Below, one piece after another: positions 24,066 through 34,312 of a DNA stretch of 64,000 nucleotides (its first letter is position 1; each line of letters starts with the position of its first letter). This DNA comes from Escherichia phage rV5_ev158: sequence record LR694611; one strand, written 5' to 3'. Both the position numbers and the translations under genes were made by a program. The notes under the pieces were generated by a model. It saw nothing but the letters and a program-made list of their open reading frames with translations. It was not told where the DNA came from and ran no database searches.

Positions 24066-24383
24066 ATGCAAATTGAAATCACTGGCAACGTAGAAATCAC
24101 TGAAGGTATGGTGTCTTTCATTTCCAACAAAATGTCTAAACTGGAGCGTTTGCACCCCTCTGCCAACTATGCACGTGTGAGTGTAAAAGTTGAAAATGAT
24201 CACCAGGAAGTTATGGCGTTCATTTTTGACAATTCTGGAAAAGAAGTTATTGCCAAGGCTAAAGGTAGTGATGCTTACGAGGCAACTGACCGTATGGTAG
24301 ATGTTGCAGCACGTCAGCTGGCTAAATGCGGTGGAAAGAAAGGTAAGGGGAAAGGCAAAGTAAAGATTGACTTTGGAGAATGA
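24066..24383 (+). CDS. hpf: ribosome hibernation promoting factor / RaiA (YfiA) family homologue
   Basis: MQIEITGNVEITEGM... resembles recalled E. coli HPF MQLNITGNNVEITEAL...; conserved VKVE block and C-terminal ARQLAK; Lys/Gly-rich tail. Confidence 0.75.
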   Translation: MQIEITGNVEITEGMVSFISNKMSKLERLHPSANYARVSVKVENDHQEVMAFIFDNSGKEVIAKAKGSDAYEATDRMVDVAARQLAKCGGKKGKGKGKVKIDFGE

Positions 24384-28330: not shown

Positions 28331-28657
28331 ATGGGTATACCGATTACTGTAAAAGAGCTAAATGAACGTGATGCAGGTGGTCTATGGCCTGCACGAAAAA
28401 TCCGCTGCGTCTATATGAAAGAGAATCTTGAACATCTTGATCAACAGATAAAGGTCGGCGATATTTTCGAGGTCTTCTATTCCAATCGGCGCAACTGGGA
28501 AACCATTCAGCCTTCTGGTTTTGTTCTTGCCAAACTTGACACTGGAGAAGTGATTATCCCTGGGTTGGATATTGTCTTCGAAATTATCCAAGAGTGGGAT
28601 CCGGATAAGATTAGATACGAAGAATTATTCGGTAAAGGTATTATCAAACCTGTGTGA
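28331..28657 (+). CDS. hypothetical protein
   Basis: 108 aa. Confidence 0.45.
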   Translation: MGIPITVKELNERDAGGLWPARKIRCVYMKENLEHLDQQIKVGDIFEVFYSNRRNWETIQPSGFVLAKLDTGEVIIPGLDIVFEIIQEWDPDKIRYEELFGKGIIKPV

Positions 28658-28965
28658 GGTGGATTATGTCTACAAAGGCGGCTAAATACTCCTATATGCC
28701 ATCAACCTCTGCAGAGGTAGACTTTAGTTTCGATGTGTTTCCACTGTTTGAGGTGATTCTGGCATACCCAACAATACTATCTACTCCTGAATCACTTGTA
28801 CCTGTTAAGTTGCAGAACGCTATGCATTCTATGCACTACAACAACAAATGTAGGCACAGATGGTGTCAGGACGAGGAAAAAGATTTGGATAGTTTGAGGG
28901 ATTTTGACAGTCACCTTTTGACACCTTTCAGCTACTCCAACCTTGATAAGCCCTCATGGGTATAG
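28654..28965 (+). CDS. hypothetical protein
   Basis: 103 aa. Confidence 0.4.
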   Translation: MRWIMSTKAAKYSYMPSTSAEVDFSFDVFPLFEVILAYPTILSTPESLVPVKLQNAMHSMHYNNKCRHRWCQDEEKDLDSLRDFDSHLLTPFSYSNLDKPSWV

Positions 28966-28989
28966 CAAAATATCAAATTTAAGACACCT

Positions 28990-29016
28990 AGGACGCTCTG
29001 TGGCGTCCTTTTCTTT
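28990..29016 (+). terminator. Rho-independent terminator
   Basis: AGGACGCTCTGTGGCGTCCT hairpin plus TTTCTTT. Confidence 0.65.
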
Positions 29017-29177
29017 ATCTGGTGCACGATTGCATACCTTGGACAGATAATCTCGTTACAGAGCGTTTAAGAGCTTTCTACAAACAAGTCTCTCTTTCGA
29101 GCGTAGCGAGAACGCACGTCCGTTTTGACCCAAATCACCATACGCTCGGATTTTAACCAAACCCTCGCGGCGTTGCT

Positions 29178-29206
29178 GTTGACACATTACCGCTCCCGTG
29201 ATAGTA
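29178..29206 (+). promoter_or_regulatory. sigma70-like promoter TTGACA-17-TAGTAT
   Basis: -35 at 29178-29183, -10 at 29201-29206. Confidence 0.5.
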
Positions 29207-29239
29207 TCCACACACAGTTTGGAGAATATGGAATACACA

Positions 29240-29329
29240 ATGAGAACATTGTCTGAAGTTTTAGTGGTGATCCTGATGATCATTACTTCCATAGCGGCTG
29301 TTGCCGGAATACTCACGGGTGGAACATGA
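29240..29329 (+). CDS. small hydrophobic peptide, 29 aa
   Basis: Downstream of promoter; single TM-like VLVVILMIITSIAAVAGIL; stop overlaps next start (ATGA). Confidence 0.3.
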   Translation: MRTLSEVLVVILMIITSIAAVAGILTGGT

Positions 29330-29538
29330 TCAACACACATGCATCTGAAGAGACATCCGAAGGAGTGACCATATGTCCCTTGGATGAGCCAGTTAAAGAG
29401 GAAAACTTAGATTCTGAGGACTCTTCATCTTCGTCCCAGACAGATCCTGAGGCTGATGACCTGACGTGGGAGGACATCGTAGATATCTGGTTCTCTATTA
29501 TGCCTGAGCACGAAGAGTTCAGAGGTGGTAGACTATGA
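29326..29538 (+). CDS. small highly acidic, Ser-rich protein
   Basis: 70 aa; DSEDSSSSSQTDPEADD. Confidence 0.4.
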   Translation: MINTHASEETSEGVTICPLDEPVKEENLDSEDSSSSSQTDPEADDLTWEDIVDIWFSIMPEHEEFRGGRL

Positions 29539-29659
29539 AGCACCGAGCCCACACAGGTTCCTCATGCTAAAGCATGGCCTGAAGAGGCAAACGTGTATAA
29601 TTCTTGTGCATTGGAACGTATAAAACCCTGTTCACACTCTCATTCCCAGAGGAGATTTT

Positions 29660-29875
29660 ATGAAGATAGAGATATTTGGTGGAGCTGACAACACTCGTGG
29701 CCTGATTTACCTTGAATTCGATGAATCATACCTGCCAGAGGTGTTAAATATAGACTCTGTTGCTGAGGCTTTGGGAGTAAACCCTAAAGAACTCCACTCT
29801 TGTGCTGAGATCGATGGTTGGGAAGAGACCATGAACATTGATTTCAGTGAAGTAGAGGATGAACCGCTAGACTGA
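29660..29875 (+). CDS. small acidic protein (MKIE start)
   Basis: 71 aa; last plus-strand gene before the ORF-free zone. Confidence 0.45.
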   Translation: MKIEIFGGADNTRGLIYLEFDESYLPEVLNIDSVAEALGVNPKELHSCAEIDGWEETMNIDFSEVEDEPLD

Positions 29876-30004
29876 CACACAATCAGCTGCCCGGCTAAAG
29901 TGCTGGAAGCGCACCTATAACACATCTTTCAACTAAATTTCCTACCACCACAATCACTTACCTACCACACATGACTGTTTGCTTGTTTAGTGAGCAGTCA
30001 TGCC

Positions 30005-30033
30005 TTGACATTCTTGCCTATCCTGATAAAATT
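30005..30033 (+). promoter_or_regulatory. sigma70-like promoter TTGACA-16-TAAAAT reading into ORF-free DNA
   Basis: -35 at 30005-30010, -10 at 30027-30032; no ORF of 60 aa or more on either strand for about 2.2 kb downstream. Confidence 0.45.
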
Positions 30034-31382
30034 AAGTTCTTCTCTTTTCTTTTACCGAGTAATTCGGGTTTTCTGTTCTCTTCGGTTTGAAGGGGTATGG
30101 AGATACACCTGAGTGAACAGGGTGAACAACCGAACCATTGGCTATGGCATTAGCATGGCGAAGCGGACGGGTGACGAAAGAGGGGCCGGAGGACACCAGT
30201 CACTGCCATATGATATATGGGTGATAACCTGAAGAGTCTGAATAAGTGTTTAAGTACCAGTCAGAGGAAAAGGTGAATGGTAGCCGAAGGGGGATGGGGG
30301 GTTTCTTGTATCTTTAATTTGTATATTATGTATACACTTGTAAACCAATCTCATCTGAATCTGTTTACCACACAAAGCGGATAGAGACAAATATCACCTA
30401 TTAAACTTGAATTATTTATAGAAAATACCACAACACCACTTAAGTCTTTGATTTTACACACAAATCCTACAGATATTCAACCTCCATATTTAACATACTT
30501 GTAACATATTCCATACTCTACCTGTCTGATCAATTTCCCCAACTACATTCTCATATTTTCCCTGTCTGTACTACCCCTGCCCCGCCGGGAGTCCCGTCAT
30601 ATCTGGCTTTCCAGCAAATATCACACCCACAAATATCATTGCCTGAAGAGGGTTTCATCCCATAATACCTGCCTTACCTGAAGAGCGCTTCATACACCAC
30701 GTAAATTTTTTAATTGACCTCCCCCTGCCCCGCCGGAGAGGTTGGCTTTTCCCACACAGACCTGAAGAGTCAGCCAGAAATATCTGAACAGGCCCAATTC
30801 TACCACGATTTTGACCTGACCTACAGGGAGGCCCGAAGGGTCTAGCTTTCAGCTAGAGTCCTTGCAGGACCTACAGGAGCGCTGCCAGGCGGACGGAATG
30901 GGAATACTTCTCATTCTTATAACAATTCTCAAATATCGAGACAGTGAGAGAAATTAATAGGCCAGGCCGTTCACACAGTGGCACAACATTTGCAACCTAT
31001 TTTGGGTGGATGAATGAGAATACCTATCATTGTGAGAACTGTTATCATTACGGGCAATTTAACATAATACCCATTATGCGCACCACCGGCGATACATACA
31101 GGGATTGATAACATGGGTTACTGTTTACGCACATAACAATTATATTTCTTACTATTTGTGTGGGATATAGTTAGCAGCCGATAGATTAGATATTAACCTG
31201 CAGACTTCTGACCGTCCAGACGTCTAAACGCCCACACACCAAGGATTATACATACACTCCTGAATGTAAACAGGGCCGCAAAAATGCTACCATACAAGCT
31301 TGTAAATTTTTCATGCAGCACTTGACAAAGAGGAGAAAAACTTGTCTGACATAATGTGACCTAACTGACACAACATGACACT

Positions 31383-31471
31383 TTTACACACCTATTAGTT
31401 TACACACTGGATTGTTTACATTCCTGATTGTTCACATGCTAACCATTTACATGATTGACTGTTTACACACC
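31383..31471. repeat. iteron-like array, six copies of (T/A)GTT(T/C)ACA spaced 14-16 bp
   Basis: TTTTACACACC, AGTTTACACAC, TGTTTACATTC, TGTTCACATGC, CATTTACATGA, TGTTTACACACC; further TGTTTAC copies near 31121, 31265 (inverted), 31871, 31924, 31973. Confidence 0.6.
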
Positions 31472-31479
31472 GATAATCA

Positions 31480-31773
31480 GCCATGCCATTCGTTTGCATG
31501 AAAACAATTAACAAGATAACAATCGACAAGTTAATAATCTTTCGCTGGCTATGCCAGGTGACTAGGTCACCCCTTCGGGCGTTCCTATGACATAATATAA
31601 AAGCAGGGCAACTATTAGCAGATCTATAGTTGCCTTGCTTGTTATGTCATGATTAACTAAATACAAGGCAACTATGATCTGATTAATAGTTTGCAGACAA
31701 ACTATCACGGGGGTGATGGTTACTGCTTTTATATTATGTCGCGACTCCGTCGCGCCATGCCATTCGTTTGCAT
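31480..31773. repeat. 20 bp perfect direct repeats flanking a palindrome-rich 274 bp module
   Basis: GCCATGCCATTCGTTTGCAT at 31480-31499 and 31754-31773; between them a ~66 bp imperfect palindrome (31586-31652, centre AGATCT), GCAACTAT/ATAGTTGC inverted repeats and hairpin CGCGACTCCGTCGCG. Confidence 0.6.
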
Positions 31774-32380
31774 AGTTGCCTTATTGTTACGAATAAAACA
31801 ATTGCATTGTTAATGATTTCTTATCTTTCTCTTAGTCATCTAATGATTCCAGTCAGTATAGTAATGTACAGTAAACATTAGACGACTAAAGATTTCTCTG
31901 TTTATGATAACTCATCTTGATAATTTCGGACTGTTTACGAAAAATGTTGACACCTGAGCTGATTTATGTTATGCAGTTTACACGAATAATTATTTTATGC
32001 AGGTATTGACTATTCCGTTATTCTGTGGTTGGAATAAATACTTTGCAGGCTATAGAATGGCGTGCGTACGTGAATTCTGAGATCTGGCGGCTATAGTTAT
32101 ACTCGATTTTTCGCGTAGAACACGCTTTCGATGCTGTGTAAGTGTATGACTTATAAAGATTTTTAGTTGTTGACAAGATATTGGAGATGTGCATCAGGTT
32201 AAAATTTGTGCAATAGCGGCATTACGTGCACTTTTGGGAGAGAAAACGGGTAAAAATGGACTTGCTACCACACAATGAAAAATTATGCAATAGTTATTTT
32301 CCATGTATATTTGTACAGTATGTGGGATTGATGGCTAGTCAATTATTCCACTTGCCAGGTAGGGCCGTTTATGGTAGGAG

Positions 32381-32404
32381 AAGAGCAGACAAAAAGAAAG
32401 GGGC
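32381..32404 (-). terminator. Rho-independent terminator for the minus-strand block
   Basis: AGGGGCCTAAGCCCCT hairpin; on the minus strand it is followed by a T-run (plus-strand AAAAAGAAA upstream). Confidence 0.6.
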
Positions 32405-32433
32405 CTAAGCCCCTTGATAATTCAGTTAAAAAA

Positions 32434-32853
32434 TTATAATGATTCGTATATTTCAAAAATCCGATTTGCCAGGTCGTTACGGTAGCGGAATTTTTCCTCA
32501 CGTTTGATCATAAGATCTTTATAGCCGTACTCTTTAAGCACTTCATTAACTTTATGGCGGCATACTTTCATATTATCCTGCGCGTCACCAATAAATCTGT
32601 TGCTATGGTGCATGGCTTTAATTTCTTCTTCCAGGACCAGGGCAACTATGCGGACCGGATCAAGCTGATAGGCGGTAACATCCATGCGGCATTGTAAACG
32701 GCTTTTTACGTCTGCCACCGGATATACTGCAACCTCTTCCCCGTCAACATTGATAATAATTAGTTTACCATCGATTTCGAATCCTTTCGCCGCCGGACCG
32801 TGACAAAAAGCGTTATCAAAGCTATATGCCGGATTATTAGATTTAATGTTCAT
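32434..32853 (-). CDS. hypothetical protein
   Basis: 139 aa; last gene of the minus-strand block. Confidence 0.5.
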   Translation of the reverse strand: MNIKSNNPAYSFDNAFCHGPAAKGFEIDGKLIIINVDGEEVAVYPVADVKSRLQCRMDVTAYQLDPVRIVALVLEEEIKAMHHSNRFIGDAQDNMKVCRHKVNEVLKEYGYKDLMIKREEKFRYRNDLANRIFEIYESL

Positions 32854-32997
32854 GGTGTTTTTACCTCTTAGTTAATTTTCTTACAACTTCCCTTCAAAAA
32901 AGAATATAGCAAAACTGCCGATCCCTGTCAACCAGGGATAGCATAATTTTTATGTGATCAAGGGGCTTTATTGCCCCTGACCATGTAACTTGTTGTA

Positions 32998-33261
32998 TTA
33001 TTTGTTGCTCATCCAGTTTTCCCAAGCTGCCTGATAATCTGCCTCACTACGGCGGATCTCTTCTTGCTCTTCAAGGCGGATCTCTTCTTCCAGGTACCCC
33101 AAGATGTCAGCCTTTTTAGTCTGGCGTAGCATCCAGTCATCTTTTTTGCGAGTGAAGATCTTATAAGCTTTCTCGCAAACCTCTTTTTTGCTACCTTTCT
33201 GGACTTCAAGAACACGATAAGCCATATATTGAACTAATTTGAGCTGATCAAGACGTTTCAT
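32998..33261 (-). CDS. hypothetical protein
   Basis: 87 aa, charged. Confidence 0.45.
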   Translation of the reverse strand: MKRLDQLKLVQYMAYRVLEVQKGSKKEVCEKAYKIFTRKKDDWMLRQTKKADILGYLEEEIRLEEQEEIRRSEADYQAAWENWMSNK

Positions 33262-33321
33262 GATGTTTACCTCTTTGTGCGGTTCTGATTAGTGGGCCTT
33301 TTGGCCCGTGTCATTATCTTA

Positions 33322-33594
33322 TTACTTATGGCGGCAGAATTCAAGCGTTTTTAATTGATAATCTTCCTCAGCCTGGAGTACAACCGCCTCGATCATTTCG
33401 TTGGCATTGTTGAAGCCATACCCTTTAGCGAACTCGTCCGCACCACCTTCGTGATCATGTTCTGCGTTCATCGCTTCCACAAAATGGAATTCCAAATTGT
33501 TGAGGTAGGGGCTTGATGTGCCGTCTTCTTTTTCGATGAGATCCCAAATAGCATTAAAACGTGATTCGACTTCTTGATTAATCCAGCTTGACAT
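33322..33594 (-). CDS. hypothetical protein
   Basis: 90 aa; AGAGGAAAA upstream of ATG; TTGACA promoter-like sequence in the upstream intergenic region. Confidence 0.45.
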   Translation of the reverse strand: MSSWINQEVESRFNAIWDLIEKEDGTSSPYLNNLEFHFVEAMNAEHDHEGGADEFAKGYGFNNANEMIEAVVLQAEEDYQLKTLEFCRHK

Positions 33595-33812
33595 AGTGTT
33601 TTCCTCTCTTCTGGTTGTTGTGTGGGCACCTTTGCCCCTTCAAGATAAATGTTACCCCACCCCCTGGCAGATGTCAACGGTTTTTATAGTTCTTATATGA
33701 CAGGCAGGCCTGGTGATTGTCTCCCCCTGTTCCCAAGTGCCGCCCGTTTAATAAGAATAGCAAAAGGGGCCGAACAAGTCAACCCCAAAATCAGTACCAA
33801 AACACTTTTTAT

Positions 33813-34124
33813 TTATACGGTCCGGTCATTGGCCTTTGTCCAGGACCTGGCGATCCGTTTCCCAGTCACCTGGAACGGAGACTGCATTGTGTGTAATGAA
33901 TCCAGCGTAAGGGAGGACCGTTTACGGCGTATCTTCAGGATCGCCAATGTATTGTCCATCTCACGGCCAGGTCCTGGGCGGTATGGTGTGCCTCCAGCGT
34001 TAAGGTTGATGATCTCATGTATTGAGATCCGGCGTTGTTTTGCTTCCGCATCTTTGAAGATAGCCAGTGGAGGCGCTATGCGTTGCCGATACCAATCTAA
34101 AACGGTTGGCGTAATAGCGATCAT
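33813..34124 (-). CDS. hypothetical protein
   Basis: 103 aa; AGGGGGT 5 nt upstream of ATG; start overlaps upstream stop (ATGA). Confidence 0.45.
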   Translation of the reverse strand: MIAITPTVLDWYRQRIAPPLAIFKDAEAKQRRISIHEIINLNAGGTPYRPGPGREMDNTLAILKIRRKRSSLTLDSLHTMQSPFQVTGKRIARSWTKANDRTV

Positions 34125-34312
34125 ATTTTACCCCCTATGTAGTCCGGTCGGTTTTTCTCTGTCATGCGTTTTAGCAATTCTTGAATAATCCCTATTGCGG
34201 TTAATGTCTCATCTTCACGCTTTGAGTCAACATACCCGGGATCGTTTATAACTTTTGTCTGATTATGATATCTCAATACCGCCAACACTTTTACAGCTTC
34301 ATCAGTGGTCAT
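34121..34312 (-). CDS. hypothetical protein
   Basis: 63 aa. Confidence 0.4.
   Translation of the reverse strand: MTTDEAVKVLAVLRYHNQTKVINDPGYVDSKREDETLTAIGIIQELLKRMTEKNRPDYIGGKI

Follow-up and report, generated by a model that had tools for sequence, protein, structure and literature searches.

A gene-free gap in Escherichia phage rV5_ev158: a likely genome-end region of Vequintavirus and a conserved promoter-driven block

What might be the function of a long stretch without genes in a phage genome that is otherwise packed with them? The question is raised by positions 29880-32430 of a 64,000-nucleotide stretch of Escherichia phage rV5_ev158 (sequence record LR694611), which we call the window and whose coordinates are used throughout. 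Our answer is that this gap is very likely the genome-end region of Vequintavirus, i.e., the place at which one genome adjoins the next in the replicating concatemer, as judged by alignment to relatives with mapped ends. The terminal-repeat explanation as such is already known, having been published for a close relative. The undescribed part of the gap is a promoter followed by a block of approximately 265 nucleotides (nt) at 30005-30303, for which the papers on phages rV5, LL12, EdH4 and KPP-1 give no description, and which probably represents either a non-coding RNA or an origin primed by RNA.

The gap and the ends of the virion chromosome

No open reading frame (ORF) of 60 amino acids (aa) or more occurs on either strand over the 2300 bp from 29926 to 32225, according to both an ORF listing and a separate ORF scan; the next longest run of this kind in the window measures 348 bp. 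An original prediction, made from the sequence alone, had claimed such an ORF-free zone at approximately 29925-32226, and this claim is confirmed. Only 7.3% of mononucleotide shuffles of the gap segment are without any ORF of this length, and the contrast with the packed flanks is therefore the stronger argument. The same prediction held that two transcription blocks converge here. They do: the final gene of the plus-strand block stops at 29875, and the first gene of the minus-strand block occupies 32434-32853. In the 2013 paper on the rV5 genome, the gap was drawn, unexplained, as a grey "non-coding" box with genes 163 and 164 on either side. That paper has two of four transcription units meeting at the gap, and its search for an origin by GC skew merely followed the changes of transcription direction. 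The curated or careful records of related phages annotate no genes in the gap.

The interval is a 100% match to Escherichia phage rV5_ev168 (LR694610.1, positions 104006-106555) and matches 120 other Vequintavirus records at 90-98% identity. Approximately 100 related genomes are collinear across the gap, with the terminal repeat merely collapsed to one copy in the present record, and the concern that the gap might reflect a mis-join is thereby dispelled. The parts of the gap that are needed for the argument are as follows.

29876-30887: right-end arm
30888-31346, no strand assigned: direct repeat of 459 bp from the termini of the virion chromosome, as a single copy in this assembly (from the ends of EdH4 and Gotham and the PhageTerm coordinates of LL12)
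31347-32430: left-end arm

The evidence for the repeat comes from phages with homologous DNA. When the record ends of EdH4 and Gotham were placed on the window with BLAST, the left ends mapped to 30888 and the right ends to 31346. Both records carry a perfect 459-bp copy at each end, and both terminal copies are annotated as repeat_region in Gotham (GenBank MT682716). Among the matching records listed, at least five, from two laboratories, begin at query position 1009 and at least three end at 1467, a span of 459 bp. Korf et al. reported terminal redundancies of 458 bp in EdH4 and HdK5 (PMC6563267). The terminal redundancy of LL12 is backed by PhageTerm read analysis (PMC6658697), and its coordinates align exactly to 30888 and 31346. 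In LL12, EdH4, HdK5 and Gotham, the 458-459-bp repeat therefore corresponds base for base to 30888-31346 and lies in the same convergent gap (PMC6658697; PMC6563267; MT682716). The reports on these phages give the length and position of the repeat only, and contain nothing on the arms, on boundary motifs shared between genera, on the promoter-driven block or on mobile cassettes.

The pattern of variation fits these ends. In an alignment of 17 Vequintavirus genomes, on which all conservation and indel figures given here are based unless another set is named, the interior of the repeat has no indels at all, and the strongest hot spots of indels and variation lie just beyond its two edges, at 30780-30880 and 31350-31560. 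With a slash marking the boundary, the left edge of the repeat reads GCTGCCAG/GCGGACGG and the right edge ...CTTGACAAAGAGGAGAAAAACTTGTC/TGACAT. The terminase gene lies outside the window, but a published comparison groups the large terminase of rV5 with the enzymes of Felix O1-type phages, and for one phage of this type a terminal repeat of 608 bp is known.

On this evidence, the virion DNA would be linear and non-permuted, and its two ends would carry identical copies of the 459 bp. When an assembly is circularised, as the present one is, these copies merge into one (30888-31346), with one arm on each side. The flanking blocks appear convergent because both are transcribed outwards towards the physical ends. 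Among the functions that the original prediction had listed as plausible for the zone, a genome terminus or packaging site is thus strongly supported by the 459-bp repeat in mid-gap. Two hallmarks of a T7-type short, non-permuted terminal repeat are found. The same sequence occurs at both chromosome ends, as seen in the homologues EdH4 and Gotham rather than in the virion DNA of this isolate, and the ends are fixed, sequence-specific and common to relatives, as seen in the record ends, the LL12 boundaries and the boundary motifs of phages from other genera.

For the comparison between genera, we used Klebsiella phage KPP-1 (Mydovirus) and Escherichia phage A5-4, which represent two other genera of the subfamily and share the layout of rV5. 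The repeat of KPP-1 measures 514 bp and shows twofold read coverage, and PhageTerm classed this phage as T7-type. As in rV5, the repeat is centred in a gap between convergent blocks, in this case of 1.8 kb, with short motifs at or near its boundaries. In contrast to rV5, the right arm of KPP-1 is just 335 bp long and is without the promoter and the 265-nt block. The convergent gap of A5-4, which is likewise 1.8 kb long, was found via the 87-aa gene that adjoins the left arm; a DsbA-like gene lies 36 kb from the repeat in KPP-1 and is hence useless as an anchor for the gap in other genera. The gaps of rV5, KPP-1 and A5-4 have no overall sequence similarity and share only the following short motifs, for which BLAST E-values are 0.015-3.6 and the A5-4 boundaries are inferred.

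Left boundary: GCTGCCAG/GC in rV5; GCTGCCAG/GC in A5-4; GGTGCTA/GAC in KPP-1
Approximately 20 nt before the right end: CTTGACAAAGA in rV5; TTGACAAAGA in A5-4; CTTGACAAGGA in KPP-1
Inside the repeat: ATTTAACATAA...CGCAC in rV5, A5-4 and KPP-1
Right arm: CCTGAAGAG and AAATATCA in rV5; GCCTGAAGAGG and no AAATATCA in A5-4; CCTGAAGTG and AAATATCA in KPP-1

Several points weigh against identifying the gap with the genome ends. The ends of this isolate are placed by homology, at 91-95% identity over the aligned end regions. In a recent Vequintavirus paper, PhageTerm called headful packaging with partial permutation; we weighed this call below the concordant mapped ends. The motif matches between genera are short (10-17 nt), with the E-values and the A5-4 boundaries as qualified above. 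Finally, the repeat accounts for just 459 of approximately 2550 non-coding bases, and the roles of the arms are our inference.

The concatemer junction of phages T7 and T3 provides a model for how such ends might be formed. It consists of a terminal repeat of 160 bp (T7) or 230 bp (T3), flanking arrays of short repeats and the promoter phiOR, and the repeat is duplicated by hairpin-primed synthesis. By analogy, replication of the rV5-type genome would yield concatemers with one repeat between genomes. Terminase would recognise the conserved boundary sequences and cleave at GCTGCCAG/GC and at ...ACTTGTC/TG (candidate cut-site sequences GCTGCCAG/GC and CTTGACAAAGAGG), and DNA synthesis would copy the repeat, such that both ends of each packaged genome carry one. 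The arms would supply accessory signals, namely the strand-specific CCTGAAGAG and AAATATCA motifs ahead of the repeat and a phased TTTACA array behind it; these oriented motifs and this array are candidate accessory binding sites that may be likened to the short-repeat arrays flanking the T7 repeat. According to this scheme, hairpin cassettes that are small and mobile would also belong to the arms, as would a single unit of extreme conservation that is specific to the genus, i.e., the promoter with its block of about 265 nt.

The two systems are alike in having a short non-permuted repeat, adjoining arrays of short repeats, inverted repeats near the junction and a strong promoter without a gene near the right end that is directed at the repeat. 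In T7, phiOR is a promoter beside the right-end repeat that has no gene to express, and it is a functional precedent for the promoter at 30005. However, rV5 is a 137-kb myovirus without a phage RNA polymerase, its promoter is of the host's sigma-70 type, and there is no sequence similarity to T7 or T3. A link between transcription and packaging in rV5 would be drawn by analogy, and a palindromic module in the left arm is dispensable in at least one relative, phage FV3 (see below).

The genome-end assignment has practical consequences. The gap should be labelled as a genome-end region, and 30888 is the position at which rV5-type records should start, with a copy of the 459-bp repeat at either end; the start is arbitrary in most of the approximately 120 public records, including the present one. 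Phages of the rV5 type are also common candidates for engineering and therapy, where the cut sites and their flanking signals must stay undisturbed.

The arms on either side of the repeat

Several repeats and motifs had been noted in the gap by the original prediction, specifically an array of iterons, a palindromic module flanked by direct repeats and short recurrent motifs. All of these are present, and they belong to the following features of the two arms. The promoter and its block, which form the outer part of the right arm, are described in the next section.

30304-30570, plus strand: AT-rich segment with more C than G, 27-32% GC at 30300-30499 and GC skew down to -0.63 (composition scan)
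30571-30887, plus strand: right arm abutting the repeat, with two CCCCTGCCCCGCCGG boxes, three CCTGAAGAG motifs, pairs of AAATATCA and a variable zone of hairpin cassettes (30780-30880) just outside the left cut site
31347-31479, plus strand: six TT(T/C)ACA units, phased at 16 bp and situated just inside the left end; relatives differ strongly in the number of copies and in their sequence
31480-31773, no strand assigned: palindromic module bounded by perfect 20-nt direct repeats at 31480 and 31754 (repeat searches, alignment)
31774-32396, no strand assigned: distal left arm, which is non-coding, free of indels and moderately conserved, with weak promoter-like sites only
32397-32415, minus strand: GC-rich terminator hairpin that closes the minus-strand gene block (hairpin search; terminator annotation in EdH4, Gotham, Alma and Murica)

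The right-arm motif CCTGAAGAG occurs seven times in the window, where 0.48 copies are expected, and five of these copies are on the plus strand between 29578 and 30769. The copy at 29578-29586 lies in the intergenic spacer upstream of the last plus-strand gene, so the motif is not limited to the gap. In other genera, CCTGAAG(A/T)G and AAATATCA recur in the gap of KPP-1 and GCCTGAAGAGG in the right arm of A5-4. We considered whether CCTGAAGAG could belong to a hammerhead-like ribozyme with a CUGANGA core, and rejected this because the closing pair of stem II fails by inspection and Rfam gives no hammerhead match. The AT-rich segment at 30304-30570, where identity drops to 90.7%, is possibly a DNA-unwinding zone or a Rho-loading zone.

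A separate observation concerns tandem runs of G or C. Three of the five such motifs in the window lie at 30289-30301, 30571-30588 and 30719-30736. Together with runs in two further sequences (L024, 4621-4708; L025, 8159-8175), they show that each of the three genera examined has tandem G/C runs either in its right arm or where its repeat begins, on differing strands.

In the left arm, the array consists of five TTTACA units (31383, 31399, 31415, 31446 and 31462) and one TTCACA unit (near 31430), all on the plus strand within 31383-31467. Tandem Repeats Finder misses this array because the remainder of each unit diverges. The adjoining module contains AACAA tandem repeats (31503-31539), a 44-bp hairpin cassette (31538-31581), a perfect 18-nt inverted repeat (31589/31723) and nested GGCAACTAT palindromes, and its core (31580-31773) is 97.8% conserved. 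Phage FV3 (L023) precisely lacks the whole module and retains one copy of the 20-nt repeat, which reflects either a repeat-mediated deletion or an empty site. The module is therefore dispensable. SYGMH1, another record assigned to the species Vequintavirus FV3, has the module.

The cassettes appear to be a phenomenon of their own. The 44-bp cassette is missing in 6 of 17 genomes and is found inverted at a different site in a metagenomic Vequintavirus contig (L043, 5255-5298). Other GC-rich hairpin cassettes of about 30-70 bp come and go among close relatives, after positions 30717, 30861, 31511 and 31641. These observations suggest that the cassettes are miniature mobile elements in the genome-end arms. 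T4-type phages have mobile promoter/stem-loop cassettes (PeSL), which are similarly small GC-rich hairpins that are present or absent among close relatives. The rV5 cassettes, one of which is inverted at a second site, differ from PeSL in that they lie in the genome-end arms and not between early genes, and they are likened to PeSL by layout, not by sequence.

Two alternative functions were considered for these sequences. The original prediction had included a replication origin among the plausible roles of the zone, and the array with its module (31347-31773) might be an origin of the iteron type that is bound by a phage initiator, in the style of lambda or of plasmids. We regard this as very unlikely. 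The array does comprise six units on one strand in strict 16-bp phase with palindromes and AT-rich DNA close by, and words resembling TGTTTAC recur in the gaps of KPP-1 and A5-4. However, no part of the gap is less conserved than the array, whose mean pairwise identity is 71% and whose copy number and sequence differ among close relatives. Moreover, the window shows no enrichment of the 11-mer TGTTTACNCAC, with 5 copies present and 4.6 expected, and the module is absent from FV3, which makes an origin of this type unlikely. There is also no adjacent gene resembling an initiator: the eight flanking proteins belong to PHROGs of unknown function, apart from one transcriptional regulator, and have no Pfam domains.

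It is even more improbable that the gap encodes several small proteins that have escaped annotation. Some automatic annotations imply such proteins, as between 3 and 16 tiny "hypothetical proteins" are annotated in certain records (MiataMamis, Mangalyan, NHEP1, PMBT16), but there are none in curated records. The longest ORFs have 54-58 aa, a length expected of random sequence too. In addition, indels are frequent outside the repeat, with lengths that are not multiples of three, and the substitution pattern of the best-conserved block resembles that of non-coding sequence. Within this block, we rejected two ORFs as small proteins: the ORF at 30113-30232 has 3 synonymous and 9 non-synonymous changes, and that at 30277-30384 is frameshifted in most genomes by an indel in a G tract.

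The promoter and the ultra-conserved block

The original prediction described a promoter with nothing obvious to transcribe, and this description is accurate. The relevant features, in the outer part of the right arm, are as follows.

29971-30003, no strand assigned: 8-bp inverted repeat CATGACTG-N17-CAGTCATG, immediately upstream of the -35 box; invariant in 16 of the 17 aligned genomes
30005-30032, plus strand: near-consensus sigma-70 promoter, TTGACA-16 nt-TG-a-TAAAAT, that points to the terminal repeat (11 of 12 matches, extended -10)
30036-30303, plus strand: ultra-conserved block of approximately 265 nt, downstream of the promoter (conservation, consensus fold)
30289-30308, plus strand: G5(A/T)G6TTTCTT tract at the 3' edge of the block, GGGGGAGGGGGGTTT in most relatives (alignment)

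In a promoter scan, the site at 30005-30032 is the sole strong site in the region, and the best by far. Both of its hexamers survive in the most divergent relative (L008), in which the spacer and the upstream DNA differ, and the body of the block is kept there too. The inverted repeat at 29971-30003 is possibly an operator or a hairpin.

The segment that runs from the promoter to 30303 has 98.9% mean pairwise identity and 6.3% variable alignment columns, as compared to identities of 91-96% in the flanking genes and 71-95% in the rest of the gap. No other stretch within 2 kb to its left or right is conserved as highly. Across approximately 118 Vequintavirus records, the block is 97.5-100% identical. 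Its conservation breaks off sharply at 30303, after GAAGGGGGA(T)GGGGGGTTTCTT, and the G5(A/T)G6 tract at this edge is the only tandem G-run on the plus strand of the window. The block exceeds any neighbouring gene in conservation across the genus, and it represents a modest but testable lead.

Searches for relatives of the block were consistently negative outside the genus. Rfam 15 gave no matches over 28500-33500 at E-values up to 1, and over 29950-30360 at E-values up to 10 it gave just four matches at chance level (11-14 bits, as against gathering scores of 35-50). The covariance-model scan that the original prediction had proposed thus yields no credible match in the gap or in the block. 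ARAGORN found no tRNA or tmRNA. A search of phages in distant mode found homologues in Vequintavirus only, and otherwise chance matches of 29 nt. A search of E. coli genomes found no homologues of the block, a search of IMG/VR returned two contigs, both rV5-like, and a metagenome search with 18-mers returned five rV5-like contigs and chance matches. No extra copies of the gap's elements were found elsewhere in the window, and KPP-1 and A5-4 have neither the block nor a comparable promoter. We also tried to interpret the conserved RNA as a sponge for CsrA. We rejected this reading, as the six GGA motifs counted by eye are, by a rough estimate, near chance for the base composition.

Two hypotheses were weighed for the block. 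The stronger candidate, although we consider it somewhat short of an even chance, is that the promoter at 30005 and the sequence at 30036-30303 form a genus-specific, stand-alone non-coding RNA gene with a regulatory, structural or anti-defence role. Host RNA polymerase would transcribe such an RNA early, base pairing between its pyrimidine-rich 5' end and its G-rich 3' end would stabilise it, and it would add to the terminal-repeat explanation rather than replace it. The near-consensus promoter, whose hexamers outlast the divergence of the surrounding DNA, the high conservation of the body and its sharp end at 30303 all argue for a transcribed unit of this type, as do the overlapping ORFs, in which non-synonymous changes exceed synonymous ones or the frame is broken. 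The consensus fold predicts pairing between a polypyrimidine 5' leader and the G-rich 3' end, and variation is concentrated in two predicted loops. Specifically, nine of the 17 variable columns are predicted to be unpaired, and of the eight within predicted pairs, five have single changes that preserve pairing and three have changes that break it. There are no compensatory double changes, which is a consequence of the near absence of variation. However, the folding z-score of the block is merely -1.34, no Rfam match is found even at the permissive threshold, the 3' end is without a canonical terminator, and homologues are lacking beyond the genus in phages, E. coli genomes and metagenomes. The original suggestion of non-coding RNA genes is plausible for one element, the promoter and its 265 nt, which is a candidate only, as neither an Rfam match nor compensatory covariation is seen. 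An unlikely alternative, drawn by analogy, is that the promoter and block constitute a transcription-primed replication origin. Host RNA polymerase would start at 30005, the G5AG6 tract would give rise to a persistent R-loop or a G-quadruplex formed as an RNA-DNA hybrid, the AT-rich DNA downstream would unwind, and a gp4-like primase-helicase and a PIF1-like helicase would take over.

This hypothesis is motivated by CSB II (conserved sequence block II), which lies downstream of the light-strand promoter (LSP) in mitochondria, and by RNA II of ColE1. The rV5 arrangement is like both of these in having a promoter, a transcript (predicted in rV5) ending at a G-rich tract and a region prone to unwinding; the promoter, the tract and an easily melted region (27-32% GC) are all found, as a likeness of layout. 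In particular, GAAGGGGGAGGGGGGTTT, present in most relatives, resembles human CSB II variants: the rV5 tract is G5AG6TTT, while CSB II ranges from G5AG7 to G6AG8. According to the CSB II literature, transcription ends at variants in this range, which give rise to R-loops with a hybrid G-quadruplex, T7 RNA polymerase included, and Pif1 has been put forward as the helicase that resolves this hybrid at CSB II. In rV5, no other tandem G-run exists on the plus strand of the window, the 200 bp that come after the tract are the richest in AT within the gap, and the products of the phage include a primase-helicase of the gp4 type (gp230) and a PIF1-like helicase of the Pif1 family (gp237), according to the 2013 rV5 paper. 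However, the resemblance to CSB II and ColE1 is one of motif and layout alone, the RNA polymerase is different, and a motif this short could arise by chance. E. coli RNA polymerase is not known to behave in this way at such tracts, and 265 nt of invariant transcript are not obviously needed by an origin of this kind. Although the cumulative GC skew of the window is maximal at 29-30 kb, the skew switches where transcription changes direction, a correspondence that the authors of the rV5 paper had noted. GC skew is therefore confounded and is not evidence for an origin here. Moreover, since KPP-1 and A5-4 are without the promoter and the block, the block cannot be the conserved origin of the subfamily.

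Combining these elements, the block at 30005-30303 might be a new functional RNA element of Vequintavirus genome ends that serves as an RNA-primed origin or as a packaging-linked transcript, acting via a CSB II-like G5AG6 R-loop or hybrid G-quadruplex that the phage's PIF1-like helicase would resolve. We consider this proposal, which rests on analogy, doubtful. If it were true, the element would be a bacterial-virus counterpart of mitochondrial primer formation.

Neighbouring genes and related records

Some observations concern the surroundings of the gap. The 139-aa gp164-like gene that borders it (32434-32853, minus strand) is missing in 3 of the 17 aligned genomes (gap fraction 18%), and EdH4 likewise lacks it. 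In the genomes without this gene, the 87-aa gene at 32998-33261 stands first. Only about 30% of the aligned relatives carry the segment at approximately 33780-34130, in which ORFs on the two strands overlap and which looks like a variable insertion among early genes.

Nineteen GenBank records titled 'Campylobacter phage' (MG0656xx), which give C. jejuni as the host, share 92-98% identity with rV5-type phages of E. coli over the gap. The only one of these that we opened, 'Campylobacter phage' C2 (MG065655, L011), is flagged UNVERIFIED. These records are probably mislabelled or contaminants.

In the plus-strand block, the gene at approximately 24066-24383 corresponds to a 'ribosome hibernation promotion factor S30AE' according to the annotation of the rV5_ev168 record, and is an unusual candidate for a role in host takeover.

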